In this document: positions 2,136 through 23,577 of the stretch, piece by piece
Numbering within the stretch: position 1 is the stretch's first letter
How the letters are laid out: the number at the start of each line of letters is the position of its first letter
Virus record (IMG/VR): IMGVR_UViG_3300031953_000085
Location: 1 to 28,044 of that record
Origin: a virus
Taxonomy: Duplodnaviria > Caudoviricetes
Strand: one strand, 5' to 3'
DNA length: 28,044 nucleotides
Made by a program: the position numbers and the translations under genes
The notes under the pieces: model-generated
Told to the model about the DNA's origin: nothing
Database searches by the model: none
Seen by the model: the letters and a program-made list of their open reading frames with translations, nothing else

Positions 2136-2968
2136 GCGTTCACTGCTTTCAGCTCGGTGAAGAATCGGCGGCGGATACTCGGCAGCGCCTCGGAACGGAT
2201 GTACAGGGTCTGCTTGACCTGCCCGTTGTGATGGCGGGGCGCGTTGTGCTGCGGCATCAGCCGGAACTTGCCGCCGTGGCCGGATGCGGCCCGGTACTCG
2301 CGGTCAATGACTTCCTTCTGCTGCGACTGGGACCATCGCTTGCCGATCGTGAGTCTGTAGATCCAGTTCGCGGTCATGAGCGTGTCCCGCAGAACGCCCT
2401 CGGCCACGCCCAGTTCTGATGCTGCGACCCGGAAGAGCACCACGTCATCCGATCCCAGGAACTCATCGACGTAGGCGACTTTGGGGGCGTCCAGTTCGGC
2501 CTGAGCCTTGAGCGCCGATGTCTGCTCGACTTCCGCGACGAGCGCCTTTAGTGCTGAGAGGTAATCGCCGGGGAGCGCGGGGGCCGCTTGCTCGGAGAGT
2601 TCCTGCTTGCGGGCCTGGTAGGCGAAGTACGACTGCATGGCCGCGATCTCAGGCTTGCGACCGTCGCCGTTCTGGAAGAGGATCGAGCATCCGTACCGGG
2701 TCAGCTCCACATCTTCGATCTGACGCTTGGCCCCGGAGCCGACCGTGACCAATTTAGGCGCTCCCCTAAAATGGTCGGCGGCATCTTTCCCGCTCGCATT
2801 CACCGATGCAATGGCCCGGTTGATTGCGTTACTGAAATCCTGCCAGGCGGTGTAGCCGGCGAACTGCATTAGGTCGCGGGCGCTCCATGCTTCCCCGTCT
2901 GTCAGGGTGACCATTTTCAGGTCGTCCAGCCTTTCGGCGTAGGCGGTGGTAATCTCGGTTCTTGTCAT
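2132..2968 (-). CDS. phage antirepressor (BRO-N/DinD-like N-terminus plus KilAC/ANT-like C-terminus)
   Basis: WSARDLMQFAGYTAWQDF...LTRYGCSILFQNGDGRKPEIAAMQSYF is BRO/DinD-like. LPGDYLSALKALVAE...APKVAYVDEFL is KilAC-like. Start reassigned to ATG 2968 (MTRTEIT). Confidence 0.85.
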   Translation of the reverse strand: MTRTEITTAYAERLDDLKMVTLTDGEAWSARDLMQFAGYTAWQDFSNAINRAIASVNASGKDAADHFRGAPKLVTVGSGAKRQIEDVELTRYGCSILFQNGDGRKPEIAAMQSYFAYQARKQELSEQAAPALPGDYLSALKALVAEVEQTSALKAQAELDAPKVAYVDEFLGSDDVVLFRVAASELGVAEGVLRDTLMTANWIYRLTIGKRWSQSQQKEVIDREYRAASGHGGKFRLMPQHNAPRHHNGQVKQTLYIRSEALPSIRRRFFTELKAVNA

Positions 2969-2990
2969 TGGAATCTCGTTTCTGTGTCGT

Positions 2991-3019
2991 GGCCCCCTGT
3001 TAGAGCAGGGGGTTCTTTC
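2991..3019 (+). terminator. hairpin plus T-rich tail, putative terminator of an antisense RNA to the antirepressor 5' end
   Basis: GGCCCCCTG-ttagag-CAGGGGGTT followed by ctttc; -10-like TAATCT at 2950-2955 on the + strand. Confidence 0.5.
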
Positions 3020-3030
3020 GATGGTCGGTT

Positions 3031-3282
3031 CTACGCGCCGATGTAGCGGCCATAGATCTTGCCCTTGCCGCTGACCACATCTCGCGTGGTGAATTCCCAC
3101 TCGCCGACGGTGCTGAAGGCCGAATTCTTCCCCTTGCGCCAGTTGTAGGCGCAGCTTGCCGCAACGTCCGTAGCCATAAGCGCCCACGCGCCCGGGTTGG
3201 CTCGCAACTCCGCGGCGACCGCATGCCATTTCCCGGCGACGCCATTGGCCGCTTCGGCTGGCTCTTCCCATACAATGCCCAT
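3031..3282 (-). CDS. hypothetical phage protein (83 aa)
   Basis: MGIVWEEPAEAANG...ELRANPGAWAL...KIYGRYIGA; purine-rich RBS AGAGGGA upstream of ATG 3282. Confidence 0.75.
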   Translation of the reverse strand: MGIVWEEPAEAANGVAGKWHAVAAELRANPGAWALMATDVAASCAYNWRKGKNSAFSTVGEWEFTTRDVVSGKGKIYGRYIGA

Positions 3283-3316
3283 TTGTTTTTCCCTCTGTTG
3301 GTCGTGCGTGGTTACG

Positions 3317-3385
3317 TGGACGGGAAGGGAATCGGACCCTCTCTCCGGGAAGTGAACAACCCGGCGCATACCCACTGCCCCGCCC
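3317..3385 (-). ncRNA. tRNA-like cloverleaf (degenerate; probably not a decoding tRNA)
   Basis: Acceptor stem GGGCGGG/CCCGTCC plus A; D-like arm GCA-GTGGGTA-TGC; stem CCGGG/CCCGG with a 10-nt loop; T arm GAGGG-TCCGATT-CCCTT. Confidence 0.55.
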
Positions 3386-3390
3386 ATGTG

Positions 3391-3421
3391 CCCCGGTCAA
3401 GGGCTCGACGCTTGACCGGGG
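3391..3421. other. 11-bp perfect stem-loop
   Basis: CCCCGGTCAAG-ggctcgacg-CTTGACCGGGG. Confidence 0.7.
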
Positions 3422-3687
3422 GTGTTGCGTCCTTTCAGCGATAGGGGCCGGTTTCGCCCCACTTACTCGCACCATCAGGATTCGTGCTGATTGCCGCCGA
3501 TCTCTCTCGGTCATCGACGGCCGTACCCACCGACCTCGAATGGTCAGTGGTCGTTCCGCGCCCTGAGTACGTTCCTTGGCGGGGCCATGACCGTCGGATT
3601 GGCCGTTCCCTCTCGCCGTGCAAGCCCCCGCCTGCACCATTCGTTCGTGGTGCCCCGTACGGCGGGGTAAATATCCTTCTCAGTGCG

Positions 3688-3704
3688 CTGTATTCAGTTT
3701 TCAA
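3688..3704 (-). promoter_or_regulatory. boxA-like antitermination element
   Basis: Minus strand reads TTGAAAACTGAATACAG, resembling rrn boxA-region sequences (TTTGA(A/G)AACT...); AT-rich island in the early-operon leader. Confidence 0.4.
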
Positions 3705-3845
3705 TGAGGTGCAGTCGCGCCCAGCCATGTCGCTCTCGCGGTGGTCCCTGGGGCAATGTCTTGCAGCCGGCATGCGGGCACGCCAGCGGTTCGGCCATCC
3801 AGTGGACGGCCAAGAATGAGAGGCGCAGAGAACGCGCCTGGCGGC

Positions 3846-4064
3846 TTACCTAGCTACAGGCAGCGGCTTGTCGACGGGCAATGAATCGGCCCACTCGACC
3901 AGCTCTTTGTGAGTGATGATCGGCGTCGAGTTCGGATAACGGCGAGTGATGTCGCCGGCCGCAAGAATGCGATTGAACGACGGGAGGCTCATCCCGACAG
4001 CTTCCGCTGCGGCAGGGATGGCATACGCTACCGGGGCCGGCGCACTGAGGCGCGGGCTGCTCAC
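3846..4064 (-). CDS. excisionase/AlpA-like HTH DNA-binding protein
   Basis: AYAIPAAAEAVGMS...IITHKELVEWADSLP; GTGA-coupled to the Cro-like gene. Confidence 0.7.
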   Translation of the reverse strand: MSSPRLSAPAPVAYAIPAAAEAVGMSLPSFNRILAAGDITRRYPNSTPIITHKELVEWADSLPVDKPLPVAR

Positions 4065-4309
4065 GGGGTCTCGATTTCGGTTCGTGCCACGAAATCAACG
4101 AGAGGGATTCCGAGGAATCGCACGATGGAGTCAAGCTCGTCCATGTTGAACGGCTTGACTCCACCTAAGCGTCTGCGGAGTGTTTCGGTTGTCATGCCCG
4201 TTGCCAGTGACAGGCTTGTACGGGACTTCTTTTGGATAGCGAGTTCCGACCGGAGTTCGGCCGCGATCCTCGCTCTTCTTAGTCCTGGGTCCTGCGTTGT
4301 TTGCTCCAT
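4061..4309 (-). CDS. Cro-like XRE HTH regulator
   Basis: SRTSLSLATGMTTETLRRRLGGVKPFNMDELDSIVRFLGI; divergent from the repressor; TATTGT -10 lies 7 nt before ATG 4309 (leaderless). Confidence 0.8.
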   Translation of the reverse strand: MEQTTQDPGLRRARIAAELRSELAIQKKSRTSLSLATGMTTETLRRRLGGVKPFNMDELDSIVRFLGIPLVDFVARTEIETP

Positions 4310-4386
4310 GTGGATCACAATACACACTTATGGAACAAAACACACCATTTTTCTCGCATTATCCAAATCTGTGCAAGAATCCAGTC
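4310..4386. promoter_or_regulatory. divergent promoter/operator region of the lysis-lysogeny switch
   Basis: 77-bp AT-rich gap between two divergent XRE genes; -10-like TATTGT (- strand, 4317-4322) and AAGAAT (+ strand, 4375-4380). Confidence 0.7.
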
Positions 4387-4686
4387 ATGGCTGGTGGATA
4401 TAAGAGCGCTCCCGGGCCGCTCACACAGGAGATAGCCGCGATAATTCGCGAGAAAATGGCGCGCGACAACGTCAAAGACGGGCAGCTGTCGGCTGCTGTG
4501 GGCGAGGCTCGCCTGTCACGCCCGCAAATCAATAAGATTCGGCTGGGTCAGAAACAGATCGACATCGAAGACCTCGAGCGGATCTGTTGGGCGCTCGGCC
4601 TAAGCTTCCTCGATGTGATTACCCAGGCCGACGCAGCCACCCCCAACCGCCACGTCGAACCCGAGTGGGACGTCAAGCCGCTCTAA
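4387..4686 (+). CDS. immunity repressor, XRE HTH (99 aa)
   Basis: LSRPQINKIRLGQKQIDIEDLERICWALGLS; the only + strand gene in the early region; start reassigned to ATG 4387. Confidence 0.8.
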   Translation: MAGGYKSAPGPLTQEIAAIIREKMARDNVKDGQLSAAVGEARLSRPQINKIRLGQKQIDIEDLERICWALGLSFLDVITQADAATPNRHVEPEWDVKPL

Positions 4687-4859
4687 GCCCAGGTCGGGAA
4701 GCTGGTCAGCCATTCAGCGATGTCGTCTCTGAGGATCACAGGTTGGTCATCGATTCTGCGCGCGCGAAGCTGCCGGCCCTTGAGGGCAATCTCGACAGTC
4801 CTCACTGGAACCCCCGCGGCCGAGGCCGCCTGAACGATGGTGTAGCCAATCTTTGACAC
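4683..4859 (-). CDS. second excisionase-like HTH protein (58 aa)
   Basis: GTG start after AAAGGGG; MSKIGYTIVQAASAAGVPVRTVEIALKGRQLRARRIDDQPVILRDDIAEWLTSFP; own -10 TAGGGT (4913-4918) and hairpin at 4884-4905. Confidence 0.7.
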   Translation of the reverse strand: MSKIGYTIVQAASAAGVPVRTVEIALKGRQLRARRIDDQPVILRDDIAEWLTSFPTWA

Positions 4860-4964
4860 AGATGTTCCCCTTTTGAATGAACGCAGCCGGGCAGATCCCC
4901 GGCTGTTCAATCACCCTATATCGGGGGTCAGACATGTCTATTGTCGAGCACACCCGCCGGCGCC

Positions 4965-6299
4965 CTAGTCCGTCGCGTGCTTCGTGTTGTCTGTCCCCAC
5001 GTCCGGGGCGTCAAGGGCAAGGAACGCGGCCATAGACGTCAGCGCGGCGCCCTGCTGCCCCATGTCCACATCTGTGTAGTGCTGCGTCATCGCCGGGGAG
5101 CTATGCCCGAGGATCGCCATGCGCGTGGCCTGGTCGACACCAGCGCGGTTCAGCAGCGACGCGGTGACATGACGCGCGTCATGCAACCGCACATCCGTGA
5201 CGCCCGCACGCTTGAGCAGCGCATCCCATGCTTTCGAGTCAGGGGACGGATCCAGCGGCGTCCCGTCCAGGGGGAGCTCCCGGCCGTGCCTGTCCTTCTT
5301 CGGGTCGGCCGTCCACACGAACCCGTGGGGGTTCGGCTCCGTCCCGGCGACTTCGATGCGGCGCATGACCATGGTCTTGAGCGGCTCGACGAGCGTCAGC
5401 ATCCGCTTGCCGGCGTCACTCTTGGGACGCGCCAGCCAGAGCCCACCCGTGACATGGCGGTGCTCCCAATCCGCAGGACCGTTGAGCGTACGCGCGGGAC
5501 AGTCAGTGCCACGCTTACGATCACACGTGCCCCCGCAGCCATGCTGCCACGACAGCCGCTGCAACTGCCACGACAGGTCGAGGGCATTGGGCAGCACGCG
5601 ATCTATCTCAAGGCCGATCAGCTCACCTTGCCGCGCACCCGTCAGGAGCGCAGCCCACCACCGCGAGCCCAGACGCTCATGCTCCGTCATTCGCAGCACA
5701 GCGATACCCTCCGCAGCGCTCATGACGTTCAAGCTCGACGCCGCCACACGCGGTTTCTTGGCGAGGTCGGTCGCGATCTCCTCCACGTACCCCTCGCGCT
5801 TGGCGTCCTTCAGCGCGCTCGACAGGCAGTTGTGGGCATAGAGCGCAGTCGACGACGACAGCCCCTTGCTGATGATGTCCTTGTGCAGCTTCCGCACGTC
5901 AGTGTGCGCGAGCTGATCCAGGCGTTTCTTGCCGATGCTGGGAATGATGTGCACCTTGATGCTCGACCGGTAGCCGGCCGCAGTCTTAGGTCGCACGTCC
6001 ATCCAGTCATCCAGCCATTCGGTCAGCCATTCGGTGACTGTGCGAGTGCTGGTGCTGACCGTGCCGCGTTTGAGCCGTTCGCGCTTCAGCTTCGTCAGCT
6101 GCTCTTTCGCGAGGCCCTCCGTCTTACGCTTGCGCGTGACGCGGTGCCGTTCGCCATCAGGGGAGGGGAGCTCAATCGCGGCCACCCAATATTTGAGTGG
6201 CTGCTTCGGATCCTTGGGGACCCTGTACGTGGTCCCCTCACCTTTTGCGTGGCGGTTCGGGCCTTGCTTCGGCCGCCCGTTATTGCGCGCGCTGCTCAT
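4965..6299 (-). CDS. int: tyrosine integrase
   Basis: N-terminal arm-binding-like KGEGT region, SAM-like domain, and catalytic motifs GARQGE, RPKS, RLHDARH, LGHS and HY; adjacent to attP. Confidence 0.95.
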   Translation of the reverse strand: MSSARNNGRPKQGPNRHAKGEGTTYRVPKDPKQPLKYWVAAIELPSPDGERHRVTRKRKTEGLAKEQLTKLKRERLKRGTVSTSTRTVTEWLTEWLDDWMDVRPKTAAGYRSSIKVHIIPSIGKKRLDQLAHTDVRKLHKDIISKGLSSSTALYAHNCLSSALKDAKREGYVEEIATDLAKKPRVAASSLNVMSAAEGIAVLRMTEHERLGSRWWAALLTGARQGELIGLEIDRVLPNALDLSWQLQRLSWQHGCGGTCDRKRGTDCPARTLNGPADWEHRHVTGGLWLARPKSDAGKRMLTLVEPLKTMVMRRIEVAGTEPNPHGFVWTADPKKDRHGRELPLDGTPLDPSPDSKAWDALLKRAGVTDVRLHDARHVTASLLNRAGVDQATRMAILGHSSPAMTQHYTDVDMGQQGAALTSMAAFLALDAPDVGTDNTKHATD

Positions 6300-6423
6300 T
6301 TCTTCTCCCCATGTTTGAGTCCCTTCTTCTGCCGTGCGCCATCCACTCTGCCCCGGTGAGTACTCCAGAGGCCTCGAGTCTTCTAACGACTGCGCCGCGA
6401 CGGACTGCTGCGGTAGAGTTCAT
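6280..6423 (-). CDS. putative 47-aa leader peptide overlapping the int start
   Basis: RBS GGAAGGA, then ATG AAC TCT ACC (MNSTAAVRRG...); stop lies 20 nt inside int. Confidence 0.4.
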   Translation of the reverse strand: MNSTAAVRRGAVVRRLEASGVLTGAEWMAHGRRRDSNMGRRNEQRAQ

Positions 6424-6469
6424 GGTGTTCCTTCCCTGTTGGACTTCGCGTAAAGCAGTGGATGGAGCT

Positions 6470-6512
6470 GAGGCCGTCAGGGTTGCCGCCCTGGGGGCCT
6501 CGTCTTTTTCTT
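6470..6512 (+). terminator. hairpin plus T-tract in the int leader (antisense orientation)
   Basis: GAGGCCGTCAGGG-ttgccg-CCCTGGGGGCCTC followed by gtctttttctt. Confidence 0.65.
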
Positions 6513-6523
6513 GGTACATGTGA

Positions 6524-6532
6524 AACGTAGCA
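6524..6532 (-). promoter_or_regulatory. extended -10 promoter for int
   Basis: TGcTACGTT on the minus strand, abutting the left arm-type repeats. Confidence 0.5.
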
Positions 6533-6535
6533 CGG

Positions 6536-6557
6536 TGGGTAGCCATTGGGTAGCCAT
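6536..6557 (+). repeat. integrase arm-type sites, left arm
   Basis: Tandem TGGGTAGCCAT x2. Confidence 0.85.
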
Positions 6558-6650
6558 TGTGGGGTATTGCATGCAAGATCAGTCAATATCTGTGCGTGGG
6601 AGTTCCGCACGATTCCGGCCCACACAGGCCATGTTCTATATGGAACGTCC

Positions 6651-6695
6651 CACTCGTAATGAGAAGGTCGTCAGTTCGATTCTGACAGGCGGCTC
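6651..6695 (+). mobile_element. attP core: 3' half of tRNA-Thr(CGT)
   Basis: Anticodon loop CTCGTAA, 3' stem TGAGA, T arm GTCAG-TTCGATT-CTGAC, acceptor 3' strand AGGCGGC-T. No D arm or 5' acceptor strand upstream. Confidence 0.9.
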
Positions 6696-6743
6696 AATGA
6701 AACAAAGGGATGCAGGGGCATCCAAGGCCAGCGAAACGGGCAA

Positions 6744-6765
6744 GGGTAGCCATTATGGTAGCCAT
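6744..6765 (+). repeat. integrase arm-type sites, right arm
   Basis: GGGTAGCCAT-ta-TGGTAGCCAT; same GGTAGCCAT core and orientation as the left pair. Confidence 0.85.
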
Positions 6766-6849
6766 AGGGTCGTTTGGGAGGCCATTCTGGGCCTCCTGCG
6801 CAAGCGGCGCGCTACACTCCAAGCACCGGCCAACAATCAAGGGGAGACC

Positions 6850-7068
6850 ATGAGCAGCACGGCGACCAAGACTCGGTCCAATCCATTCGCCACCGCATTG
6901 CTCGCGATTGGGGGAGGTGCGATACTCCTGGCTGCTGCCTTCGCGATGATGGCCAGTGGCACGGACCTGACAGAGTCGTGGGGGGCTGCGGCCGCCGGCG
7001 TCCTGTTCCCGCTCGGCGTCGTCGCTGTTCTCCTCTGGCTGACCGTCGCAGCCTTGCGCTGGAAGTAG
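6850..7068 (+). CDS. small two-TM membrane protein (moron-like)
   Basis: RBS GGGGAG, -10 TACACT at 6813-6818, two hydrophobic helices, downstream terminator. Confidence 0.75.
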   Translation: MSSTATKTRSNPFATALLAIGGGAILLAAAFAMMASGTDLTESWGAAAAGVLFPLGVVAVLLWLTVAALRWK

Positions 7069-7135: not shown

Positions 7136-7140
7136 GCCTG

Positions 7141-8055
7141 CTATGCGGCGCCAGCGATGTACGCGCTCACGAGGTGCGCCGCATGACGGTCGAGGTTCTG
7201 GCGGCCGCGGTCGTAGCGCGTGGTGATGCGCGGGTCTGAGTGCCTGGCGAAGATCTGGGCGTCGCGCAGCGGGGCGCCGGCGTCGAGTGCGGCCGTGATC
7301 GCAGCGTGCCGCATGGTGTGCGGGTGCGTTCCTACAGGGAGGCCAGCGCGCTTCACGAGGATCTTGCACCGGCCGTAGGCGCCGCGCCTATTCTGCGCCT
7401 TGCCCGCGCGAGTGAGCACGACCGGGCCAGTTGTCCGATCCCCTGCAGCGATGACGAGAGCGCGCAGCACAGGGACGGGGATAGGCATCGTGGCGTCCTT
7501 GTTGCCCTTGCCCGTGAGCTGCAGCACACGGTGGCCACGGACCTCGCTCTGGAAGTCCTCGATCTGCACGTTGCACGCCTCGCTCACGCGCAGGCCCATG
7601 AGCCCCATGAGCGCGAACAGGGCGCCGTCGCTGGGCGAGCTGGCCGACGCGACCTGCAGCAGCTTTCCGAGCTGGTGCCGGTCGAGGCCGAGCGCGCGCG
7701 TCTCGTCGTAGCTGACCTTCGGCATCCGCAGGAACACGGTCGGATCCTTCGCGATGTAGTCGTCTGCCTGGGCGATGCGGTAGAAGCCGCAGAGCGTCGA
7801 CAGTTTGCCGTGCACCGTCGCCGCGTTGTTGCCGCGCACGTCCTCAAGGTGCCGGGCGTAAAGCTCGAGGTGCACGCGCTGCGCGTCGAGGGGTGGCAGG
7901 CCGTTGGCCGAGCACCACTCGAAGAAGAACCGGAGGTCGTTGGTGTACTTGTACCGGGTGTCGCCCTTGTACCGGACGAGGAAGGCCAGAGCGGCCATTT
8001 CCTCAATCGTCATTCCCGGCTTGAAAGTGGGCGCGAGGGCTGTAGGGTTTTGCAT
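7141..8055 (-). CDS. second tyrosine recombinase, XerC/D-like (304 aa)
   Basis: SAM-like N-domain plus MGLRVSE, GKGNK, HPHTMRH and RHSDPRITTRYD; no arm-binding domain; start reassigned to ATG 8055 after GGAG. Confidence 0.92.
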   Translation of the reverse strand: MQNPTALAPTFKPGMTIEEMAALAFLVRYKGDTRYKYTNDLRFFFEWCSANGLPPLDAQRVHLELYARHLEDVRGNNAATVHGKLSTLCGFYRIAQADDYIAKDPTVFLRMPKVSYDETRALGLDRHQLGKLLQVASASSPSDGALFALMGLMGLRVSEACNVQIEDFQSEVRGHRVLQLTGKGNKDATMPIPVPVLRALVIAAGDRTTGPVVLTRAGKAQNRRGAYGRCKILVKRAGLPVGTHPHTMRHAAITAALDAGAPLRDAQIFARHSDPRITTRYDRGRQNLDRHAAHLVSAYIAGAA

Positions 8056-8093
8056 GTTGGCTCCAGATACTTTGCGGTGGATGGATGCCGGCG

Positions 8094-8131
8094 GCCTCGT
8101 CCGATGCGGAAACATCGGGCGGGGCATTTTT
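8094..8131 (+). terminator. hairpin plus T-tract in the recombinase-2 leader (antisense orientation)
   Basis: GCCTCGTCCGATG-cggaaa-CATCGGGCGGGGC followed by attttt; sense -10 TAGAGT at 8146-8151 (- strand). Confidence 0.6.
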
Positions 8132-8169
8132 GTGCCTGCGAGTGGACTCTACGCCTACCCCCTGACAAA

Positions 8170-8227
8170 CACGAATAGGCCCCGGCCGCCATCCCTCCTG
8201 GGGACGACGGCCGGGGCCGTTTTCGTG
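8170..8227. terminator. long hairpin, probable terminator insulating the recombinase from upstream late transcription
   Basis: CACGAATAGGCCCCGGCCGCCATCCC / GGGGACGACGGCCGGGGCCGTTTTCGTG. Confidence 0.7.
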
Positions 8228-8291: not shown

Positions 8292-9425
8292 ATGGCTACG
8301 CGCAATTCCGGGGGAACGTTCGCTCGCGGAAACACATTTGATTTCCTACGACTCCTCGCGGCGCTCTCCGTGTTGGTTCACCATTCAGTAATCCACCTCG
8401 AAACAAACTTCTTCTGGCATTCAGAGTCGAACACGTTCTGGTTCTACGGCGGCGTGCCGTTGTTCTTCATTCTGAGCGGCATGATGATTTTTCAATCAGC
8501 AGAACGATGCCATTCGGCACGTCGACCGTGGCGGGATTTCTACCAAAACCGTGCCCTACGCATCATGCCCGCGATCTACTTCTATTGGATTGTCAGCATG
8601 GCCTTGCTTGTCCTGATCGGCGCTCTAACGATAAGCGAGATGGCTTCCCCGGGATTTATCGCCTTCGCTGCGAGCAACCTGTTCCTGATACCGGTCATCA
8701 GCCCTGGCGCTCTCGACAGCTTTGGCGTGGGCGTCGTCAACGGCAGTCTGTGGACGATCCCGGTCGAGGTATCCTTCTACCTGATCGTGCCGCTCTTCGT
8801 GCTTCTGCTGGTGAAGTCTGGTCGTCGTGTCCTGATTGGCGTGTTGGCGCTTTTGTCGATTGCGGGCTTACTCGCTTTTGCTGCGGCGGGTGGGAACTCT
8901 ACCGAGTCAGTAGCCTGGAAGCTATTCGGGGTAACGTTCGCCCCCTACCTTTGGTACTTCGCAATCGGAATATTTTGGTCAAAGGCGTGGCCTAGCGCGG
9001 TAAAATCGGGGTGGATAGCGGCGGCGTCAGCAGTCACCTACCTTGCAATGGTCAATATCCCCGCCATTGGCGGCGCAGACGTTCTCTTGAACGCGGCTGC
9101 GGCAATCCCCCTGTCCTACGCCGCGGTCTGGTTTGGGTACAACGGCCCGCGAGCCCTGTCTAACGTTGCCGCTCGGATCGGTGATTTGAGCTTCAGCACC
9201 TACATCTGGCACATGATCGTCGTAAACGTGCTGATTTACTTCGGTGCCCGAGACTGGGAAATCTCGGGCACCGTGCTGGTGATGGCGGTTGCTGTTCTAT
9301 CAATGCTTATTGCGGCTGCTTCATGGTGGTTTATCGAGAAGAGTGCACTCTCGCGCAAACGCTACTCCACAGGCGCAGTCGCGGTTACTGCCCCCAGCCG
9401 TAAGTCAACGACGCGACAGCATTGA
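8292..9425 (+). CDS. acyltransferase family 3 (OafA/Oac-like membrane O-acyltransferase)
   Basis: FDFLRLLAALSVLVHHS, GVPLFFILSG, RALRIMP, NGSLWTIPVEVSFY and GDLSFSTYIWH motifs; about 10 TM segments; TAGACT -10 lies 6 nt before the ATG (leaderless). Confidence 0.93.
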   Translation: MATRNSGGTFARGNTFDFLRLLAALSVLVHHSVIHLETNFFWHSESNTFWFYGGVPLFFILSGMMIFQSAERCHSARRPWRDFYQNRALRIMPAIYFYWIVSMALLVLIGALTISEMASPGFIAFAASNLFLIPVISPGALDSFGVGVVNGSLWTIPVEVSFYLIVPLFVLLLVKSGRRVLIGVLALLSIAGLLAFAAAGGNSTESVAWKLFGVTFAPYLWYFAIGIFWSKAWPSAVKSGWIAAASAVTYLAMVNIPAIGGADVLLNAAAAIPLSYAAVWFGYNGPRALSNVAARIGDLSFSTYIWHMIVVNVLIYFGARDWEISGTVLVMAVAVLSMLIAAASWWFIEKSALSRKRYSTGAVAVTAPSRKSTTRQH

Positions 9426-12178: not shown

Positions 12179-12486
12179 ACCTGAAATCCTCCCTGAACGA
12201 TGAATATGACGATGGCTGATACGAACGGGCTCGCGATGAGGGCGATGATTGTCCATCGGTTGCGGGATCTCTGATCTTCGGCTCGGTTGTCGGCGGCTGT
12301 CTCGGCTGCCTTCGCTGCCCGAGCCTCTGTCTCAAGGTCGCGCAGACGAGAGTTCATTCGTTCCTTGTCTGCGTTGTAGACGTCGAGCGATACGACTTTG
12401 CCGGTGAACTGTCGAATGGCTTCTTCGACGCGGGTGAGGCCCCGCATGAGTTCCCACGGTGTGGGGTCGGGGCCGTTGTCAGCCAT
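12175..12486 (-). CDS. coiled-coil protein with a single C-terminal TM (lysis accessory)
   Basis: RLRDLETEARAAK coiled coil, then WTIIALIASPFVSAIVIFIV. Confidence 0.75.
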   Translation of the reverse strand: MADNGPDPTPWELMRGLTRVEEAIRQFTGKVVSLDVYNADKERMNSRLRDLETEARAAKAAETAADNRAEDQRSRNRWTIIALIASPFVSAIVIFIVQGGFQV

Positions 12487-12559
12487 CTACCTGCACGGGC
12501 ATGAGCGAGTCTGAGATGGTTTCAACTTCGCAGTTCGAGTGTGGGTGGGTAGCGTTCAT
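12479..12559 (-). CDS. putative 26-aa leader peptide MNATHPHSNCEVETISDSLMPVQVDG
   Basis: Strong RBS AGGAGG; stop overlaps the next ATG (ATGGCTGA); below the ORF-track size cutoff. Confidence 0.5.
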   Translation of the reverse strand: MNATHPHSNCEVETISDSLMPVQVDG

Positions 12560-12601
12560 AGCTAGCCCTCCTGTCTGATCTTGGTCAGGTGGGTTGGGTT
12601 A

Positions 12602-12636
12602 GCCCCCGGTCGACGCTTGGCGTGCCGGCCGGGGGC
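12602..12636. terminator. hairpin immediately after the endolysin
   Basis: GCCCCCGGTCG-ACGC-ttg-GCGT-gc-CGGCCGGGGGC. Confidence 0.6.
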
Positions 12637-12642
12637 GGTGGC

Positions 12643-13455
12643 CTACTTGGCCAGTCGTTCCCGTTCGCGCTTGTCCTGCTCGTCCTGCACCGCCTTTGCG
12701 ATCGCCGCGTAGTCGACGTCGGCGCCCGCGCCGCCCTGGGCCTGAGGCATGGCGGCGAAGAGCGTGGACACGATCTCGGCGACGAGTCCCGACCGGCGGT
12801 TCGCGGCTTCCCGGATCAGAGTTGTTACTTCGTCCGGGGTGAGGACATCAGCCCCGAACACCTTCTCGTTCAGCGCATAGGACCAGCCCTGCGCCGTGCT
12901 GGTGTACGCCTGCGAGGTGAACTCGCCAATGAGGGCGATGGTGCCACCCGTCACTTTGACAATCTTCATGGCTTCTTCTTTCGGTTCGGGGATGGCGGGG
13001 ATGACGATGGGGGTCTGGCTTGAGGCCCCGGTACTGGTGCTGCTGATGTAGGGGTTCGGGTCGACAATGCTGCCGTTGATGCGCAACTCGAAGTGCAAGT
13101 GCACGCCGCTCGCATTGCCCGTGTTGCCCATCCATGCGATCTGCTCACGAGCGGCGACATGCTGGCCAACACTCACCAGGGGAGTGCTGCCCGGAATGTG
13201 CGCATACAGGGTGGAGTACCCGTCGCCGTGGTCGAGCAGGATGTAATTCCCGTACCCGCCCTTGCGGTCATTCGTCGGTGCGTGCTCGCCCCACCGAATG
13301 AATGCAACGCGTCCAGCGGCTGCGGCGTAGACCTGCGCGCCGCTGCCCCAGCCGTAATCGTTCCCGTTGTGCGGAATTGTCGAAACGCCCGGAACCGGCT
13401 TGTCCATATAGCGACGTCCCGGCTCCTTGTTCGCCGGCCGAATTAGGGTGATCAT
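12643..13455 (-). CDS. endolysin, M23 family peptidase
   Basis: HNGND (HxxxD), GYGNY, YAH and GNTGNASGVHLHFE (HxH) motifs. Confidence 0.92.
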   Translation of the reverse strand: MITLIRPANKEPGRRYMDKPVPGVSTIPHNGNDYGWGSGAQVYAAAAGRVAFIRWGEHAPTNDRKGGYGNYILLDHGDGYSTLYAHIPGSTPLVSVGQHVAAREQIAWMGNTGNASGVHLHFELRINGSIVDPNPYISSTSTGASSQTPIVIPAIPEPKEEAMKIVKVTGGTIALIGEFTSQAYTSTAQGWSYALNEKVFGADVLTPDEVTTLIREAANRRSGLVAEIVSTLFAAMPQAQGGAGADVDYAAIAKAVQDEQDKRERERLAK

Positions 13456-17368: not shown

Positions 17369-20300
17369 TAGTTACCTTCCCTGTAGCCGGCTTTGCGGGT
17401 GTCTTCTTCTTCGTCGAGCACGGAGGCGACGACAGCGCGCATGACGCCCTTGAGCCCGTTGCCGAGGTCGAGGGTGCCGGTGAGCTGCATGCCCTTCATG
17501 GATCGGGTGGCGGCAGGTGAGGAGCCTGACGAGCCGTTCGCGAACGACTTCGCGCCGGCGGGCACCAACTGGTACCCGAACCGGTCGGCGATGTCGGCGA
17601 GGATCGCGGTGGAGCGACCTCGCTTGGACTGGGCCAGGGGGATGTACCCCTCGCCTTCCGTTTCCGGTTCCGCCCACACGCGCATGGTGCCGGCCTTGGC
17701 GATCTGAGCGACGTGCCGCTCAGATGTGCCGCCGTTGGCGAAGTACTGGACCACGCCGCCGTTGGCCTGGTTGATCGTGCTCTTGAGCACGCCGAGGCCG
17801 TTCCCGTACGAACCGGGTGCGGGACTGTTGAGCTTCGCGTACCCGTCGAAGAGCAGCTGCAGTTTGTACGCCGCGCTCGACGTGTTGATGTTCACGACAG
17901 GGTTCAGGCTCTCGATCTTGAGCCCATACTCGGTCATGATCTCCGCGACCGTGGCCGTGCCCGCTGACAGCTTCCCGGCGATCTCGTTGGCTGCGCCCTG
18001 CCCGAGCTGGGCAGCCGCTGCGGCTATGACCGTCTTGGAGTCCGTCAGCTTCTGAGCGAACGCGCCCGTGGCCGCTGCCGATCGTTCAGCGAACAGCCCC
18101 TCCATGCGTGCGAGCTCTTCATCCGAGGCATTGACCAGGTTGGCGACGAGGGGCGCGCCCTCCGGGCCCATTTTCTGCAGCTCGTCGAGGGTGCCCTGCG
18201 ACACCTTCCCGGCCAGCGCGATCATGTTCGATTCCCAGTTGGTCTGGGCGTCGACCATGGTCTGCAGCTCGGTCAGGTATTGCTCCGTCGTCAGCTCAAA
18301 GCCACCGATGAAGTCTTCCCACGTGTCTGAGGTGTCTTCGGTGGCGTCAGCGGCAGACTGCGCGTATTCCTGATTCTTGGCCATGGCGTTGTCGAGCGCC
18401 CCGCCAGTGTCGACGAATGCGGCGTCGGAGTTGCTGAGGCTGGCGATCCATTCGTCGTTGGCGGCCGTCGCTGCCTCCGTCGCGGCTATGACCGCTTCGG
18501 TTGGCTCCGTGGAGCTCTTCATCGCGTCCCGGTGTTCTTCCCAGGCAGTCTTTGCTTCCGCGAGTTTGCCCTTTGTTCCGGAGATCGCACCCTCTACGTC
18601 TTGGAACGACTTGTTGAGCACTGAGCTCGTTACGCCTGTCCGGTCAGCTTCTGCCCGGTGCGCGGCGAGATTCGCGTTCACGATCTCCAGTGCATCGCCC
18701 TCGCCGAGGATCGCGTCGGTCATCGTCCCGAGACTGATGCCGAGGAGCTTCGCGGTCCGTCCTACACCGGACGATTGCAGTTCGTTGAGAACGGCCTCGC
18801 GCGTGTTCTTCGTGAACGCGCCGGTGTTCTCGTCCAGGGATGTGGTGTACGAATCCATGACAGCTTTGCTGTCGGCCGCCTTCTTCGCGAAGGCGCCGAG
18901 CACGACGGCCGCAGCGGTAAGCACGAGCCCTACAGCTCCGCCGGCGGTAGCGGTGCCCCGCATAGTGCTATTCAGGGTGGTCAGCGCCGCACGGAATGCG
19001 ACGATCTTCGGGACGGCGAGCAGGAACGTGCCGCCGAGCAGCAGAGCGGCGCCGGTAGCGATACCGATGGTCTGCACGTTTCCCTGCACGCTCTCGTCGA
19101 GGGACCCGTACCAGTCGGTGAGGCCGATGAGGACCTGCACCATGTCGCGCAGAGTCCCGTTGGCCTGACCGCCGGTCTTGATGAGGATCGAGTCCATGGA
19201 ACCGCCGAGCAGTTCGATGTCGCCGAGGAGGTTATTCGTCTTGTCAGAGGCCTGCTTCGCAGCGAACCCCTGATCGTCGACGTTGTCCGTCCACTCCTTG
19301 ACGCCTTTCGCTCCCGACTTATAGAGGATTCCGGCGGCGCTTGCCGCTTCCGCGCCGAAGATGGCACCGAGGGCAGCGGATCGCGTCTGCTCGTCGAGGC
19401 CGCCGAGGCCGTTCTGCAGCTGCTCAGCGGCGCCTTCCATGCCGATGAAGTTGCCGGAGGCATCGAACACGTTGATGCCGTATTTCTTCATCTCCTCGGC
19501 GCCCTTGGCGACCGGGGCGGTGAGGGAAGAGATCACGCTGCGCAGCCCGGTACCGGCCTTCTCGCCGAGCAGACCGTTCGCAGCCAGCAGTGCCAGCGTG
19601 CCCACGGTTTCCTCGAGCGGGATGTTGAGGCGGGCGAAGGTGACACCGACGTACCCGAGGCCGAGAGAGAGGTCTTCGACCGAGCCTTGAGCCTTGCCAG
19701 CGCCGGCGGCGAGCAGGTCGGCGACGTGCCCGGCCTGGTCACCCTTGAGCCCGAAGACAGACAGAGTCGTGGCAGCAATTTCAGCGGCCCGCGCGACTTC
19801 GAGTTCACCCGCGGCTGCGAGTGCCAGGGATCCTTTCAGCCCGCCGCCGAGGATGTCGCTGACAGCGACGCCGGCCTTCGCAAGCTCGGTCTGTGCGTCT
19901 GCGGCTTCTTTCGCCGAGTAGATCGACGCGGCGCCCTGCTCGATCGCGGACTCTTTGAGGAGCTTCTGCTGCTCGATGTTCGCTTGCGTCGCGGCCACCG
20001 TCTTCGAGCTGGCCTCGTCGAACTTCGCGTACGTGCCCACGGTGAGCGCGGCCATCGTGAGAAGGGCCGCGCCGATGCCGACCGCAGCGACGCCGACAGT
20101 CTTGGCGGCATCCTCCGATTTCTTCTTGAGCTCTGCGACCTCGGCGGCGGTCTGCTTCACCTTGGGGGTGGCGGTGGCTGCCTCGTCGCCGAGCTTCTTC
20201 GTCGCCGTGCCCGCGCCCTCGACGGGTGCCTTGGCATCCTTGCTGGCCTTGCCGGTCTTGTCGACCTCGGTGCCGAGCGGTGCGACCTTCTTCGACGACG

Positions 20301-20415
20301 TTTCGGCGGACTTGCCGAGGTCGTCGATGGCCTTATCGGCGGCTTTCGCGTCCCGTTGGAATACCTCCGCTCCCATCATTTGGAGGGCGAAGCTGATTGC
20401 GCCTGCGTTGAACAC
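17368..20415 (-). CDS. tape measure protein (TP901-like core)
   Basis: 1015 aa, Ala-rich and helical; SAKEAADAQTELAKAG, GEKAGTGLR and AIFGAEA motifs; C-terminal ANGG...WAEPETEGEGYIPL. Confidence 0.93.
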   Translation of the reverse strand: MFNAGAISFALQMMGAEVFQRDAKAADKAIDDLGKSAETSSKKVAPLGTEVDKTGKASKDAKAPVEGAGTATKKLGDEAATATPKVKQTAAEVAELKKKSEDAAKTVGVAAVGIGAALLTMAALTVGTYAKFDEASSKTVAATQANIEQQKLLKESAIEQGAASIYSAKEAADAQTELAKAGVAVSDILGGGLKGSLALAAAGELEVARAAEIAATTLSVFGLKGDQAGHVADLLAAGAGKAQGSVEDLSLGLGYVGVTFARLNIPLEETVGTLALLAANGLLGEKAGTGLRSVISSLTAPVAKGAEEMKKYGINVFDASGNFIGMEGAAEQLQNGLGGLDEQTRSAALGAIFGAEAASAAGILYKSGAKGVKEWTDNVDDQGFAAKQASDKTNNLLGDIELLGGSMDSILIKTGGQANGTLRDMVQVLIGLTDWYGSLDESVQGNVQTIGIATGAALLLGGTFLLAVPKIVAFRAALTTLNSTMRGTATAGGAVGLVLTAAAVVLGAFAKKAADSKAVMDSYTTSLDENTGAFTKNTREAVLNELQSSGVGRTAKLLGISLGTMTDAILGEGDALEIVNANLAAHRAEADRTGVTSSVLNKSFQDVEGAISGTKGKLAEAKTAWEEHRDAMKSSTEPTEAVIAATEAATAANDEWIASLSNSDAAFVDTGGALDNAMAKNQEYAQSAADATEDTSDTWEDFIGGFELTTEQYLTELQTMVDAQTNWESNMIALAGKVSQGTLDELQKMGPEGAPLVANLVNASDEELARMEGLFAERSAAATGAFAQKLTDSKTVIAAAAAQLGQGAANEIAGKLSAGTATVAEIMTEYGLKIESLNPVVNINTSSAAYKLQLLFDGYAKLNSPAPGSYGNGLGVLKSTINQANGGVVQYFANGGTSERHVAQIAKAGTMRVWAEPETEGEGYIPLAQSKRGRSTAILADIADRFGYQLVPAGAKSFANGSSGSSPAATRSMKGMQLTGTLDLGNGLKGVMRAVVASVLDEEEDTRKAGYREGN

Positions 20416-20800
20416 CGGCCATCACCTCTTTCTGTAGCCAGGACGGCTCGGGGTCGTCGATGAGGCGGTGAATGGCGGACCGCACGAAATGCCATGTGCG
20501 GGTATCGAGCGCCCGGTCAAGGTCCGGGATGAGTCCGTGCTGGGCGAGGTCGAGTTCGACCTCGCCGAAGAGCTGCGGAAGCGCGAGGCCGTACAGCTCT
20601 ACTGCGGTGATGCTCCGGGCGTCGTGGTCGACTGCTTCGGTTTGCGCGACCGCTTGTTGGCCGGCAGCCGCTCGGAGGCTGTAGTACTCGCTGCGGTAGG
20701 CGGGGTAGGTGCCTGTAACTGGATCAGGTGTTCCAATGCCGTACTTGGCGCGGTCTGCGTTAGTGAGATTCCCAAACTCATGGTCAGGAGCAGGAGTGCT
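20333..20800 (-). CDS. -1 frameshift extension of the tail assembly chaperone (gpGT-like)
   Basis: Slippery GCA AAA AAA at 20808-20800; the -1 frame is open for 155 codons (STPAPDHEF...DLDRALDTRTWHFVRSAIHRL...) to TAA at 20335-20333. Confidence 0.8.
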   Translation of the reverse strand, partial: STPAPDHEFGNLTNADRAKYGIGTPDPVTGTYPAYRSEYYSLRAAAGQQAVAQTEAVDHDARSITAVELYGLALPQLFGEVELDLAQHGLIPDLDRALDTRTWHFVRSAIHRLIDDPEPSWLQKEVMAGVQRRRNQLRPPNDGSGGIPTGRESRR

Positions 20801-21135
20801 TTTTTTGCGCCGGCCATGCCTTCACCGCCGCTCAGGTAGGCGTTGACGCCGTCCATGCCAAGGACGGTCTGCCAGTAGAACGCTGGCAGCAGAACGCTCT
20901 GACCCTCGCTGAGGCTGAGTTCGTCCTGCACTCGCTCGTACACGGCGGCGCCGACGGCCTCTTCGAGCACAGCTTCCATCTCGGAGCCGGGCCGTTGACT
21001 GGCGACGATCTCGATGAAGAGGTTCGTGAGCGCCTGGCCGCGTCGGCCGCCGAGCGGGGGAATGATGAAGGGCTCTTCGATGCCGTCGATGTGGATGGCG
21101 AGGTTGCGGCCTTGGAGTGTGGCGGTGGTGGTCAT
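20599..21135 (-). CDS. tail assembly chaperone (gpG-like)
   Basis: Between major tail and tape measure genes; contains the A7 slippery run. Confidence 0.85.
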   Translation of the reverse strand: MTTTATLQGRNLAIHIDGIEEPFIIPPLGGRRGQALTNLFIEIVASQRPGSEMEAVLEEAVGAAVYERVQDELSLSEGQSVLLPAFYWQTVLGMDGVNAYLSGGEGMAGAKKALLLLTMSLGISLTQTAPSTALEHLIQLQAPTPPTAASTTASERLPANKRSRKPKQSTTTPGASPQ

Positions 21136-21173
21136 GAGGTATCCCTGCAGATAGGTCGTGCGGATGGTGTGGG

Positions 21174-21201
21174 GCCGGGCGGCCAGTGATGACCGCCCGG
21201 C
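21174..21201 (-). terminator. hairpin after the major tail gene
   Basis: GCCGGGCGGCCA-gtga-TGACCGCCCGGC. Confidence 0.6.
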
Positions 21202-21208
21202 AGGGGTG

Positions 21209-21955
21209 CTACGCCCGGGTGTAGGGCAGTGCGACGCTGACGCCGATGGCGTTGGTCAGCACGATCGGCGCGGACCCGGCGGTGCCGGTGGGGACCTCGA
21301 GCACGACGATGTTCGGCTCGCCCGGGATCTGCTCGATCGACGTGACCGCGACGCCGCCGATGGTCGCTGCGGTGATCGCGTCGACCTTGTAACCGCGGAC
21401 GTAGACGTTCTCGCTCGCAGCGGCGAGGGTGGGAAGCGCCGACTCGGCGACGGGAACCCCAGTGCCGGCGATCGGCGACTCGACGTCGCGCACGACACCG
21501 TTCGACGTGAGCGTGAACGTGTATCCGCCCTTGTCTGCGTAGCCGGTGGTGAGGTCGGCGACAGTGACGGTGAAGTTGCCTTCGATCGCACCGAGCGCGG
21601 GGTCCTTCGCGTCGAACACCTGCACGTCGACGGCGTTCGCGGCGCCGGTGGCCTTGGCGATTCCGAGCAGGGCGACGAGCCACGTCTGCGCGATGGCGCC
21701 CGTGTTGTCGCGAACCGCTTCTGCGGCGAAGCTGACCACGTAGTTGTCGCCGAGCTTGGACTCCGAGGTGCGGCCCTTGTTGCCGTAGTTCTCGCGGGTG
21801 ACGACGATCTTGGTGGGGACTGCGGCGAGCGCGTTGACGTCGCCGGTGATGTTCTCCCAGGCACCGGTCCGCTTGACGCGGATGATCTTCTCGTGTGCGA
21901 GGGCGAGGGTGCCTTCGGTCTGGACGGTGGTGTCGTACAAGGTTGAATCGGCCAC
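21209..21955 (-). CDS. major tail protein with C-terminal Ig-like (IPT/TIG-like) domain
   Basis: Synteny; RBS AGGAG; ends VYVRG...TIGGV...VPTGTAGSAPIVLTN. Confidence 0.8.
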   Translation of the reverse strand: MADSTLYDTTVQTEGTLALAHEKIIRVKRTGAWENITGDVNALAAVPTKIVVTRENYGNKGRTSESKLGDNYVVSFAAEAVRDNTGAIAQTWLVALLGIAKATGAANAVDVQVFDAKDPALGAIEGNFTVTVADLTTGYADKGGYTFTLTSNGVVRDVESPIAGTGVPVAESALPTLAAASENVYVRGYKVDAITAATIGGVAVTSIEQIPGEPNIVVLEVPTGTAGSAPIVLTNAIGVSVALPYTRA

Positions 21956-22056
21956 GTGGGTCTCCTAAACGTGTGATGGCTGAGGCCCGTGTGGGCCGTG
22001 GTCTGGCGGGGTCGCCAGTAGGCGCCACCGGGTGGTGACGCTGGAATGTGGGGGTA

Positions 22057-22488
22057 TTAGGCGAGCGGGCGGCGCCCAGTGAAGTGGTACGTGGCCGATA
22101 CGGCGCAGCGCCCGGACGAGTCAGCCGATAGCGTGAGCGACGAGAACAGCTCGCACCACGCGACATTCATCCCGGGCGGCACGTTCTGCTTCTGGTCCAT
22201 CGCGGCTTCGATCAGCGCGGCGAAGTTCTCCGCGGCGATCCTCGACCCCTTGACCCGGGACATGATCTGCACGCGGTACAGCATGTTCGCGCGTCCGGAA
22301 GCGATCGGCTGCAGCCACGAGAGCACGATGGCGTTGTCGTTCGTCGTCGGCATTTCCGGCCCATTGGTGTAGATGCCACGGTCGGTCGATGCGTAGTTAC
22401 TGGTGGAGTACACGCCGACGCCCTGGTCTGCGAGGTGCTGGGCAAGGGCCCGGCGGAAGATGATCGGGTAAGCGTCAGGATCCGCCAC
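22057..22488 (-). CDS. tail terminator
   Basis: LAQHLADQGVG...MP...VQIMSR...DSSGR pattern; synteny. Confidence 0.75.
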   Translation of the reverse strand: MADPDAYPIIFRRALAQHLADQGVGVYSTSNYASTDRGIYTNGPEMPTTNDNAIVLSWLQPIASGRANMLYRVQIMSRVKGSRIAAENFAALIEAAMDQKQNVPPGMNVAWCELFSSLTLSADSSGRCAVSATYHFTGRRPLA

Positions 22489-22885
22489 GGTTCACCTCCG
22501 TCTCAACGATCTTGCGCAGCTCGTCGGCGTTCTGCAGGGCAGGGTCCGAGAGGTAGTGCGACTTGCGGCCGTTCTGAAAATTCGAGTTGCCCTTGTAGTG
22601 GCGTCCGAGGTTGTCGACGAGTTCGCCGTCCTCGTGCCACCGGGCCGCGTAGCTGGTGGAGTAAGTGACAAGGCTCTCGTCGCCGAGGGCCTTCGCGGGT
22701 ACGACATCGCCCGACGCGACGAGAGTGCCGCCGCCGCCCGAGTCGAGCGGGGCCTCAGCAGCAGACAGCGCGAGCAACCGTTCAGCGGCGAGGTTCTGCC
22801 CCTTGACAGCAGCGAGCAGCATGTTCGCGACCACTCCGTCCAGGTTGCTGGTGATGGTCACAGCTGCGCGGATCTGGCCTGCCAT
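22475..22885 (-). CDS. neck/tail completion protein (HK97 gp10-like)
   Basis: APLDSGGGGTLVASG...YSTSYAARWHE...HYL pattern. Confidence 0.7.
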   Translation of the reverse strand: MAGQIRAAVTITSNLDGVVANMLLAAVKGQNLAAERLLALSAAEAPLDSGGGGTLVASGDVVPAKALGDESLVTYSTSYAARWHEDGELVDNLGRHYKGNSNFQNGRKSHYLSDPALQNADELRKIVETEVNRGGS

Positions 22886-22898
22886 GGTGCCTCCTAGA

Positions 22899-23504
22899 TC
22901 ATTGTTGGTATGAAACCTCCGCGATGACTCGCGCGATGGTGGCCTGCGTGACGCCGAGGTCGCGCCCGAGTGCCGACATGGAAACGGTCCCCGTGGCGAA
23001 CTCTGTCTTTATCCGTGCGACATCGGCGAGTGTGAGCTTCGCCATTACGTTGCGGGTGCCGCGAACGTCGCGGGCCTTAGAAACCATGTCGTCATGATTG
23101 GCCTTATGGCTACCGAGGAAGATATGCGCCGGGTTCATGCACGGAGGGTTGTCGCATCGGTGCAGGGCAAGCATCCCCTCCGGGATGAGTCCGAAGTAGG
23201 CCTCGTAGGAAACGCGATGCGCCACGACGATCTTCTGTTTCCCTACACAGCACCTTCCATACCCCGACTTCAATCGGGATCCGCGCCATTCCCAGCACTC
23301 GCCCAAATCTTCACGCCGAACCACGCAGTCCCACCCGACGCGCTCAAGCCGTTCGGCGAGCGTTGCGGTCGGGGATGCAGTACGAGCGCCGGGGGCGCCC
23401 GTTGAGCCATTGCGCCTGAGGCGGTTGTAGTGCATGGGGCAAAGGCCGCGGGACTCGCCTCTGGTCCTGTCACAGCCTTCGATTGAACAGGTACGATTGC
23501 TCAT
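22899..23504 (-). CDS. free-standing HNH endonuclease
   Basis: N-terminal CSIEGC...GLCPMHY, then CWEWRG...GYG...AHRVSY...HRCDNPPCMNPAHIFLGSHKANHDDM, and a C-terminal HTH. Confidence 0.92.
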   Translation of the reverse strand: MSNRTCSIEGCDRTRGESRGLCPMHYNRLRRNGSTGAPGARTASPTATLAERLERVGWDCVVRREDLGECWEWRGSRLKSGYGRCCVGKQKIVVAHRVSYEAYFGLIPEGMLALHRCDNPPCMNPAHIFLGSHKANHDDMVSKARDVRGTRNVMAKLTLADVARIKTEFATGTVSMSALGRDLGVTQATIARVIAEVSYQQ

Positions 23505-23506
23505 AT

Positions 23507-23577
23507 CAACTCCTTACCGAGTTGGTCATGCCCCCGGACGTTGACGCGTCGCGGGGGTCTTTGCTGCCTACATTCTA
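23507..23577 (-). promoter_or_regulatory. HNH gene promoter and structured leader
   Basis: -10 TAGAAT (23572-23577); hairpin at 23531-23557; stem CAACTC-ggtaag-GAGTTG that sequesters the RBS AAGGAG. Confidence 0.7.

Follow-up and report, generated by a model that had tools for sequence, protein, structure and literature searches.

The stretch of DNA analyzed here (28,044 nucleotides, nt; hereafter the window) comes from IMGVR_UViG_3300031953_000085, a linear virus record of 28 kb with an estimated completeness of 70%. The phage is temperate, and the window encodes head and tail proteins, an M23 endolysin, an O-acyltransferase, two tyrosine recombinases, a Cro/CI-type repressor and an antirepressor. 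We focus on five leaders of minus-strand genes, those of the antirepressor (ant), the integrase (int), a second recombinase (rec2), a short open reading frame (ORF) in the lysis region and a free-standing HNH endonuclease, at which the plus strand is predicted to encode a small antisense RNA. A preliminary description of the window had proposed that one cis-antisense cassette is reused at five hazardous genes, with a TAnnnT hexamer in the first codons pointing back across the start codon and ribosome-binding site (RBS) into a single GC hairpin. On re-reading, the five hexamers, hairpins and tails were all found where that description had placed them, as were its three convergent sense −10 elements (6524-6529, 8146-8151 and 23572-23577). 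The features of the five leaders are the following (aa, amino acids; CDS, coding sequence; uORF, upstream ORF; SD, Shine-Dalgarno; mRNA, messenger RNA; z, folding z-score).

2132..2968, minus strand: antirepressor (KilAC/Ant), 278 aa, PF03374, phrog_63/130
2950..2955, plus strand: predicted antisense −10 TAATCT, nt 14-19 of the antirepressor CDS
2963..3019, plus strand: predicted antisense RNA of ant, ~57 nt, with weak 5′ stem, 3′ hairpin and short U-rich tail, spanning the AUG and leader; z -2.8
4965..6299, minus strand: tyrosine integrase (int), PF00589 and PF14659
6280..6423, minus strand: 47-aa uORF overlapping the int ATG (6299), without Pfam hit; equivalent uORF and cassette in locus L184
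6414..6419, plus strand: predicted antisense −10 TAGAGT, in the int uORF
6427..6512, plus strand: predicted antisense RNA of the int leader, ~86 nt, with two hairpins and U-tract; z -3.9 versus -2.5 on the mRNA strand
6524..6529, minus strand: putative sense −10 TACGTT, TG-extended, of the int leader
7141..8055, minus strand: second tyrosine recombinase rec2, 304 aa, PF00589; 54% to Arthrobacter phage integrases
8043..8048, plus strand: predicted antisense −10 TAGGGT, in rec2
8056..8131, plus strand: predicted antisense RNA of rec2, ~76 nt, with two hairpins and U-tract; z -4.6; terminator-like match at 8094-8125
8146..8151, minus strand: putative sense −10 TAGAGT of rec2
12479..12559, minus strand: 26-aa uORF between the endolysin and a 103-aa predicted membrane protein, overlapping the ATG at 12486
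12550..12555, plus strand: predicted antisense −10 TAGCGT, in the lysis-region uORF
12563..12636 or beyond, plus strand: predicted antisense RNA of the lysis-region leader, at least 74 nt, with two hairpins and without U-tract; z -3.4
22899..23504, minus strand: free-standing HNH endonuclease, 201 aa, PF13392
23492..23497, plus strand: predicted antisense −10 TACGAT, nt 8-13 of the HNH CDS, a position found family-wide
23505..23562, plus strand: predicted antisense RNA of HNH, ~58 nt, with 5′ hairpin 23505-23526 carrying the anti-SD, 3′ hairpin 23530-23558 and short tail
23572..23599, minus strand: HNH sense promoter-like site TCGAAA-16-TAGAAT, with its −10 at 23572-23577

The start of the antisense RNA was placed 8 nt after the hexamer at all five sites, giving predicted RNAs of 57-90 nt. 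Each of them folds into a 5′ stem over the anti-SD followed by a terminator-like 3′ stem; the preliminary description had seen a single hairpin per locus and missed the further 5′ hairpin, which is present at all five, and whose first paired base is the first base of the RNA at four loci (at ant, the RNA begins one base earlier). Folding z-scores across the five leaders range from -2.8 to -4.6 on the plus strand and from -2.4 to -3.8 on the mRNA strand, the latter being weaker than the antisense values in four cases and slightly stronger for HNH. At int, rec2 and HNH the convergent −10s lie ~80-110 bp apart; no sense −10 was found within 46 nt past the hairpin at the ant or lysis sites. The lysis gene, originally named as a target, has to be replaced: what follows the site is a uORF lying downstream of the endolysin, and not the endolysin itself.

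TANNNT is the actinobacterial −10 element (PMC4895711). Within the window, TAnnnT begins in 11/1477 10-nt windows inside genes and at CDS nt 5-14 of 3/27 other gene starts, and its association with hairpins is weak (p 0.02-0.22 depending on threshold); a looser hairpin definition yields p from 1.0 to 6e-5 by cut-off (0.18 at one) and is uninformative in GC-rich DNA. The in-window test is weak and underpowered; the case rests on homologues.

Relatives of the HNH leader were sought with a pattern comprising only the 3′ hairpin and linker, in 39 of the 64 parts of IMG/VR, which returned 120 loci (116 distinct). These were filtered by hairpin energy, purine run and the presence of an SD with a start codon, blind to the hexamer, which kept 73 of the 116 and failed 43; seven loci were later added by hand. 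The resulting alignment, A1, leaves out near-duplicates and 11 atypical or self loci; L216 was set aside as a chance match to a probe. AnnnTA, the hexamer read on the coding strand, starts at CDS nt 8 in 55 of the 73 hexamer-blind cassettes and at nt 5-11 in 63. Among ORFs of at least 40 aa, with the seven hand-added loci included, the third base of codon 4 is T in 61/73, as against 257/2555 at codons 6-40, and this T is kept under 12 different residues and 33 tripeptides. The hexamer is present in 27 of 30 protein clusters unrelated by blastp; the constraint acts at the DNA level. Model R1 leaves out the hexamer, so that new matches test it independently: 18/19 held-out matches (16 at one offset) and a further 25/30 (23 at that offset) carry it, adding up to 43/49, with 39/49 at one offset. 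The corresponding frequency at CDS nt 5-14 of annotated actinophage starts (Karkharias, Auxilium, Kenna and part of Giles) is 16/303, bearing out the preliminary expectation that the hexamer is not equally common at ordinary gene starts. Among these 303 starts, it occurs in 7/34 with a strong upstream hairpin and in 9/269 without (Fisher 7e-4; p 9e-3 and 4e-5 at two other thresholds), and six of the seven starts with both features are recognizable as cassettes (three in Kenna alone), the genes that follow them being integrase, antirepressor, HNH or of unknown function.

Aligning homologous leaders, another of the checks proposed at the outset, revealed two covarying helices in this HNH-type family. 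In an unfitted alignment of 51 leaders, the two helices are paired in 98.7% of 856 cells, with 112 double changes; this pairing exceeds that of all 500 shuffles (0/500 reach it), and slid controls attain 36-50%. The count of pairs with double changes, taken alone, is not significant in the 51 leaders (53/500) and is significant in the fitted 84-sequence alignment. Wobble pairs favor the antisense strand, with 137 G-U against 2 A-C cells (46 against 1 once two columns partly determined by the pattern are removed), although the asymmetry is somewhat favored by structure having been predicted on that strand, and the antisense fold is more stable than that of the mRNA strand in 57/59 cases. Covarying stems with antisense-strand wobbles argue for selection on a folded RNA. 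A YUNR loop appears in 23/59 loops and, without a null, is not used as a hallmark. The HNH leader of the window scores 64.7 bits with R1 and 68.2 bits (E 1e-11) with model R2, and no Rfam family matched the window or 20 family loci at cut-off. On sequence evidence, the HNH leader is a member of a widespread RNA family with predicted antisense-strand structure and, at the level of the motif, a putative antisense promoter of its own at a fixed position.

R1 matches are found in at least 5/151 genomes of Cryobacterium's family and, in a genus taken to be Streptomyces, in at least 27/41, with as many as 11 in a single genome; these are minimum counts, since scoring covered part of the candidates; 11/40 virus records, most of them chosen for one known copy, contain two or three matches. 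By Pfam, the 65 downstream ORFs, some of them cut by short flanks, comprise 15 HNH, 3 GIY-YIG-like, 2 recombinase, 4 helix-turn-helix and 4 other proteins, with 37 lacking a hit, and the 24 chromosomal downstream ORFs comprise 1 HNH, 2 serine recombinases, 2 others and 19 without hit. The idea that targets are hazardous genes thus holds for the 20/65 that are nucleases or recombinases and does not extend to the 37/65 without Pfam hit. Many cassettes (L044-L163, L219-L248) precede Cys/His-rich or DUF6415 ORFs of 60-120 aa and unknown function, which suggests that the cassette marks the starts of these ORFs and that their dose matters; a DUF6415 control search gave no matches.

Part of the phage was detected in 13 sequencing runs, all of brine-metagenome DNA. 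One contig joins 22895 to 23596, so that the HNH gene, cassette and sense promoter are all gone together, consistent with a module that moves with its gene. Part of the HNH cassette (23489-23605) also appears in other contigs of these runs, which then enter different 3′ hairpins and genes, suggesting that the cassette recombines between genes. Tandem cassettes 25 nt apart occur in L200 (639-799), and L199 has two within 1 kb. Strong leader hairpins without a hexamer at the annotated start are seen in L043 (28588), L196 (9651 and 37005), L197 (26408) and, several times, L210; some of these may be mis-called starts and others ordinary terminators.

The reuse of one cassette at all five window sites is not upheld. 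The leaders are not sequence copies, and R1 scores the HNH leader alone as significant; with R2, the ant, lysis and rec2 leaders rank near the top in the correct register at E 1-2, rec2 homologues reach E 0.03-0.5 and int gives no hit. Common descent of these four leaders with the HNH-type family is possible; a homologous cassette at all five sites does not reach significance on these scores. What stands of the proposed antisense RNAs over the RBS is the RNA genes, strongly supported by conservation, covariation, strand asymmetry and the Streptomyces RNA scr4677 discussed below.

Homologues of these four sites give a varied picture. The rec2 hexamer is retained in L040, L041, L042, L165 and L043, as five different hexamers including that of the window; L164 and L166 have lost it, and three distant homologues do not have it. 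A free-standing ant homologue (L180) has the hairpin and the hexamer at the same offset, and the coupled homologues L181-L183 have neither. In the lysis region, L165 carries hairpins, a U-tract, a hexamer and a 24-aa uORF matching only in its first four codons, and contigs in 3/4 runs skip 12494-12649. The 47-aa int uORF is a likely translational coupler. The int uORFs of the window (6280-6423) and L184 share the stretch GVL..g.W.AHGRR at both peptide and DNA level; the uORF, or an element within it, may therefore be under selection. The Giles 74-75 region showed no cassette on reading, and ncRv12659 of M. tuberculosis was discarded as an instance, since it starts upstream of the integrase start and points away (PMC3861185).

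Antisense RNAs are very probably transcribed in the window phage, and it is probable, though considerably less assured, that they block translation, as a Sar-like cis-antisense throttle carried with mobile genes. RNA polymerase with the housekeeping sigma factor would start 8 nt past the hexamer, where pairing in the 5′ hairpin begins, and terminate at the 3′ hairpin and its short run of pyrimidines. The product would pair with its own mRNA leader, covering the SD (in ant, the AUG too) and lowering initiation on an mRNA that would begin just past the hairpin (int, rec2, HNH) or arrive by read-through from the operon (ant, lysis region). For int and the lysis region, the target of the RNA would be a short uORF translationally coupled to the next gene, as mok is the target of Sok. 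Because the RNA would be diffusible, expression would be capped as copy number rises and in the lysogen, with a burst in a naive cell; this copy-number damping with an entry burst follows the reasoning applied to IS10 and plasmid systems. Convergent transcription and the hairpin of the mRNA itself may contribute as well.

The architecture recurs in scr4677, a northern-validated RNA of ~70 nt that is expressed in three Streptomyces species and runs antisense to the leader of SCO4676 (PMC3896431, PMC2602773). A probe pattern recovered eight scr4677-type loci, of which 7/8 have TAnnnT at CDS nt 14, an anti-SD region and a family-style 3′ hairpin, the 5′ hairpin being present in the best fold of five loci. 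For S. coelicolor the hexamer position was inferred from a primer, not from genome sequence, and the expected start derived from hexamer and primers, 5108120-5108124, was worked out before the look-up and written down afterwards. Differential RNA sequencing places transcription start site TSS-2303 at 5108124 on the plus strand, antisense to SCO4676 (PMC4895711, supplementary file 4), which is CDS nt 6 of SCO4676 and 8 nt past the inferred hexamer. Like the phage leaders, scr4677 combines convergent promoters, an anti-SD 5′ hairpin and a 3′ hairpin of the same loop and bulge style; unlike them, it has been described as a lone chromosomal small RNA (sRNA) beside a weak HTH_36 gene, never linked to mobile genes. 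In S. avermitilis, a strong plus-strand start at 3913697 adjoins SAVERM_3140, a case not counted here; the SCO4676 ribosome-footprint ratio looks low, as does that of one of two incidental comparators, and was not used. More doubtfully, the cassette could be conceived as a portable RNA self-throttle of actinobacterial homing endonucleases, recombinases and other mobile genes, whose variable loops serve as identity tags, a resident copy silencing the incoming cognate gene in trans and a cell lacking one permitting a burst; this would amount to RNA incompatibility between individual mobile genes, in phages as well as on Streptomyces chromosomes, and scr4677 would be a settled relative.

Several observations weigh against an antisense RNA that blocks translation. 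Covariation controls are inflated by related sequences, the pyrimidine-rich tails have short U-tracts (mean 3.8 T in 8 nt, none at the lysis site) and the SD is largely paired in 4/5 predicted mRNA folds. The closest rec2 homologue (88%) lacks the hexamer, and the int cassette with its uORF appears in L184 only, 1/6 displayed homologues (one homologue with an internal stop was left out of the display). For scr4677, ~3-fold overexpression left SCO4676 mRNA similar or slightly lower and raised SCO4677-4676 read-through RNA 2-3 fold, effects that were subtle and RNase III independent, with an RNA-level readout in a system where translation was not assayable; the 5′ end obtained by rapid amplification of cDNA ends (RACE) lies 19 nt further along, and sequence 80-160 bp upstream was required for full expression (PMC3896431). 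The RACE end falls in the predicted 5′ loop and is perhaps processed. The scr4677-type loci score 6-7 bits with R1 (E 3-4) and have no R2 match at E<=3; they therefore support the architecture and not membership of the HNH-type family.

The alternative that survives best, which we regard as unlikely, is that the antisense promoter acts in cis through collision, occlusion of sense transcription or premature termination, the RNA being a by-product. The convergent −10s at three window sites are compatible with it, and a sense TAnnnT lies 8-24 nt past the hairpin in 40/66 family members against 16/718 control windows. However, both stems covary, including a 5′ stem unneeded for termination, the wobbles fall on the antisense strand, and the ant and lysis sites have no nearby sense −10. 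A shade less likely still, the RNA might pair with the mRNA and yet tune its stability or processing within the operon instead of ribosome access. The increase in read-through RNA upon scr4677 overexpression, with SCO4676 RNA little changed, would fit this explanation (PMC3896431), in a study where translation was not measurable; an RNA that starts at the complement of the start codon and always spans the SD nonetheless has the geometry of a translation blocker.

It is improbable that the relevant element is instead an mRNA hairpin sequestering the RBS, as at T4-like homing endonucleases, together with an insulating terminator, the hexamer reflecting a codon effect. Hairpins have indeed been described before free-standing endonucleases (PMC2677866), and the paired SD of most window mRNA folds agrees with sequestration, but the 137:2 ratio of G-U to A-C favors the antisense strand, and the hexamer persists under 12 different residues and in more than one frame, and is lost where the hairpin is lost. 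Such a hairpin may add to the antisense mechanism. A chance coincidence of AT-rich first codons and ordinary GC hairpins, which the 3/27 other window starts with a hexamer and the weak in-window test leave room for, is contradicted for the HNH family by the held-out members (43/49 versus 16/303 starts) and is very improbable.

Translational control by a leader antisense RNA has several precedents. P22 Sar has a two-hairpin shape. It is a 68/69-nt antisense RNA that pairs with the ant mRNA and blocks initiation (PMC12197685). One window site likewise precedes an antirepressor, but here five loci in the window phage and dozens of unrelated targets are concerned; Sar had no Rfam match in the window (E<=1) or in 20 loci (E<=0.5), and no Arc/Mnt match among 37 window ORFs scanned points to an immI context. 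In CopA/tap and P1 c4/icd, an antisense RNA acts on a coupled leader ORF. Sok similarly acts on the mok leader ORF, coupled to hok (PMC5488031). Coupled leader ORFs are also the predicted targets at int and in the lysis region; unlike Sok/hok and CopA, the window targets include no small membrane toxin or Rep and there is no Rfam match, and the hydrophilic uORF peptides, without Pfam hit, and the enzymatic nature of the other targets do not fit a type I toxin-antitoxin system. The predicted RNA of the int leader resembles ctRNA_pGA1 (RF00236), an actinobacterial countertranscript from a Corynebacterium plasmid, in having two stems, and matches it weakly; its score of 28.8 bits (E 0.05) is under the cut-off of 45, and int is not a Rep gene. 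IS10 RNA-OUT has convergent promoters over a translation start, copy-number damping, a single long stem and a transposase target; the first two are likenesses, the single stem and transposase are differences, and no Rfam match was obtained here. The RBS hairpins of T4-like endonucleases also constitute a structured leader moving with a free-standing endonuclease, but they are read as mRNA hairpins with a late promoter, in contrast to the antisense-strand pairs and backward −10 seen here (PMC2677866). Reading of the five leaders found no T4 late promoter element.

Regarding the genomic setting, the rec2 protein is 61-88% identical to proteins of named Cryobacterium genomes, making Cryobacterium the probable host. 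Two further features lie upstream of int:

6536-6560: direct repeat
6633-6686: tRNA (transfer RNA)-like 3′ fragment, with a tyrosine recombinase on either side

The fragment is likely the attP core and the repeat likely supplies arm-type sites; several Arthrobacter phages similarly have tyrosine recombinases flanking an attP-like fragment. An O-acyltransferase moron (8292-9425, plus strand), possibly a surface-modification or exclusion gene, opposes the late operon, with a hairpin at 8178-8218. The antirepressor frame (2132-3640, minus strand) stays open for 224 codons upstream of the likely start, across the hairpin, and automatic annotation would yield a false 502-aa protein. A possible sixth, degenerate site lies at 3270-3430, where the gene starting at 3282 has AnnnTA at its nt 7 and a strong hairpin spans 3390-3421; the z-score of the long fold there, 0.8, does not reach significance.

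No account of an antisense leader that recurs in actinophages was found in the literature searched, most subscription papers lying outside the search: the available portions of a 2025 phage-sRNA review (PMC12197685) make no mention of actinobacteria, the available main text of Weinberg 2017 shows none, and the available portions of the ShiLan and Adephagia papers describe no such RNA. The tables of Fremin 2023 (PMC10690425) include HNH-adjacent and actinobacterial candidates, so that they may already contain some of the HNH-type family without a name. The principle is long established; what seems not to have been described before is the breadth and portability of the cassette, the placing of a promoter within the initial codons of unrelated proteins, and the connection with scr4677.

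The control of free-standing endonucleases, extra integrases and antirepressors in actinophages is largely unstudied, and the cassette offers a testable answer, with exact RNA ends predicted in culturable phages (Arthrobacter phages Auxilium, Karkharias and Pitbull; Gordonia phage Kenna). It would also help to fix start codons, and recoding the first codons of such genes would delete a regulator. For high-GC hosts, antisense modules that are small and orthogonal would make useful parts, and the family would both account for scr4677 and give Rfam a widespread RNA family.

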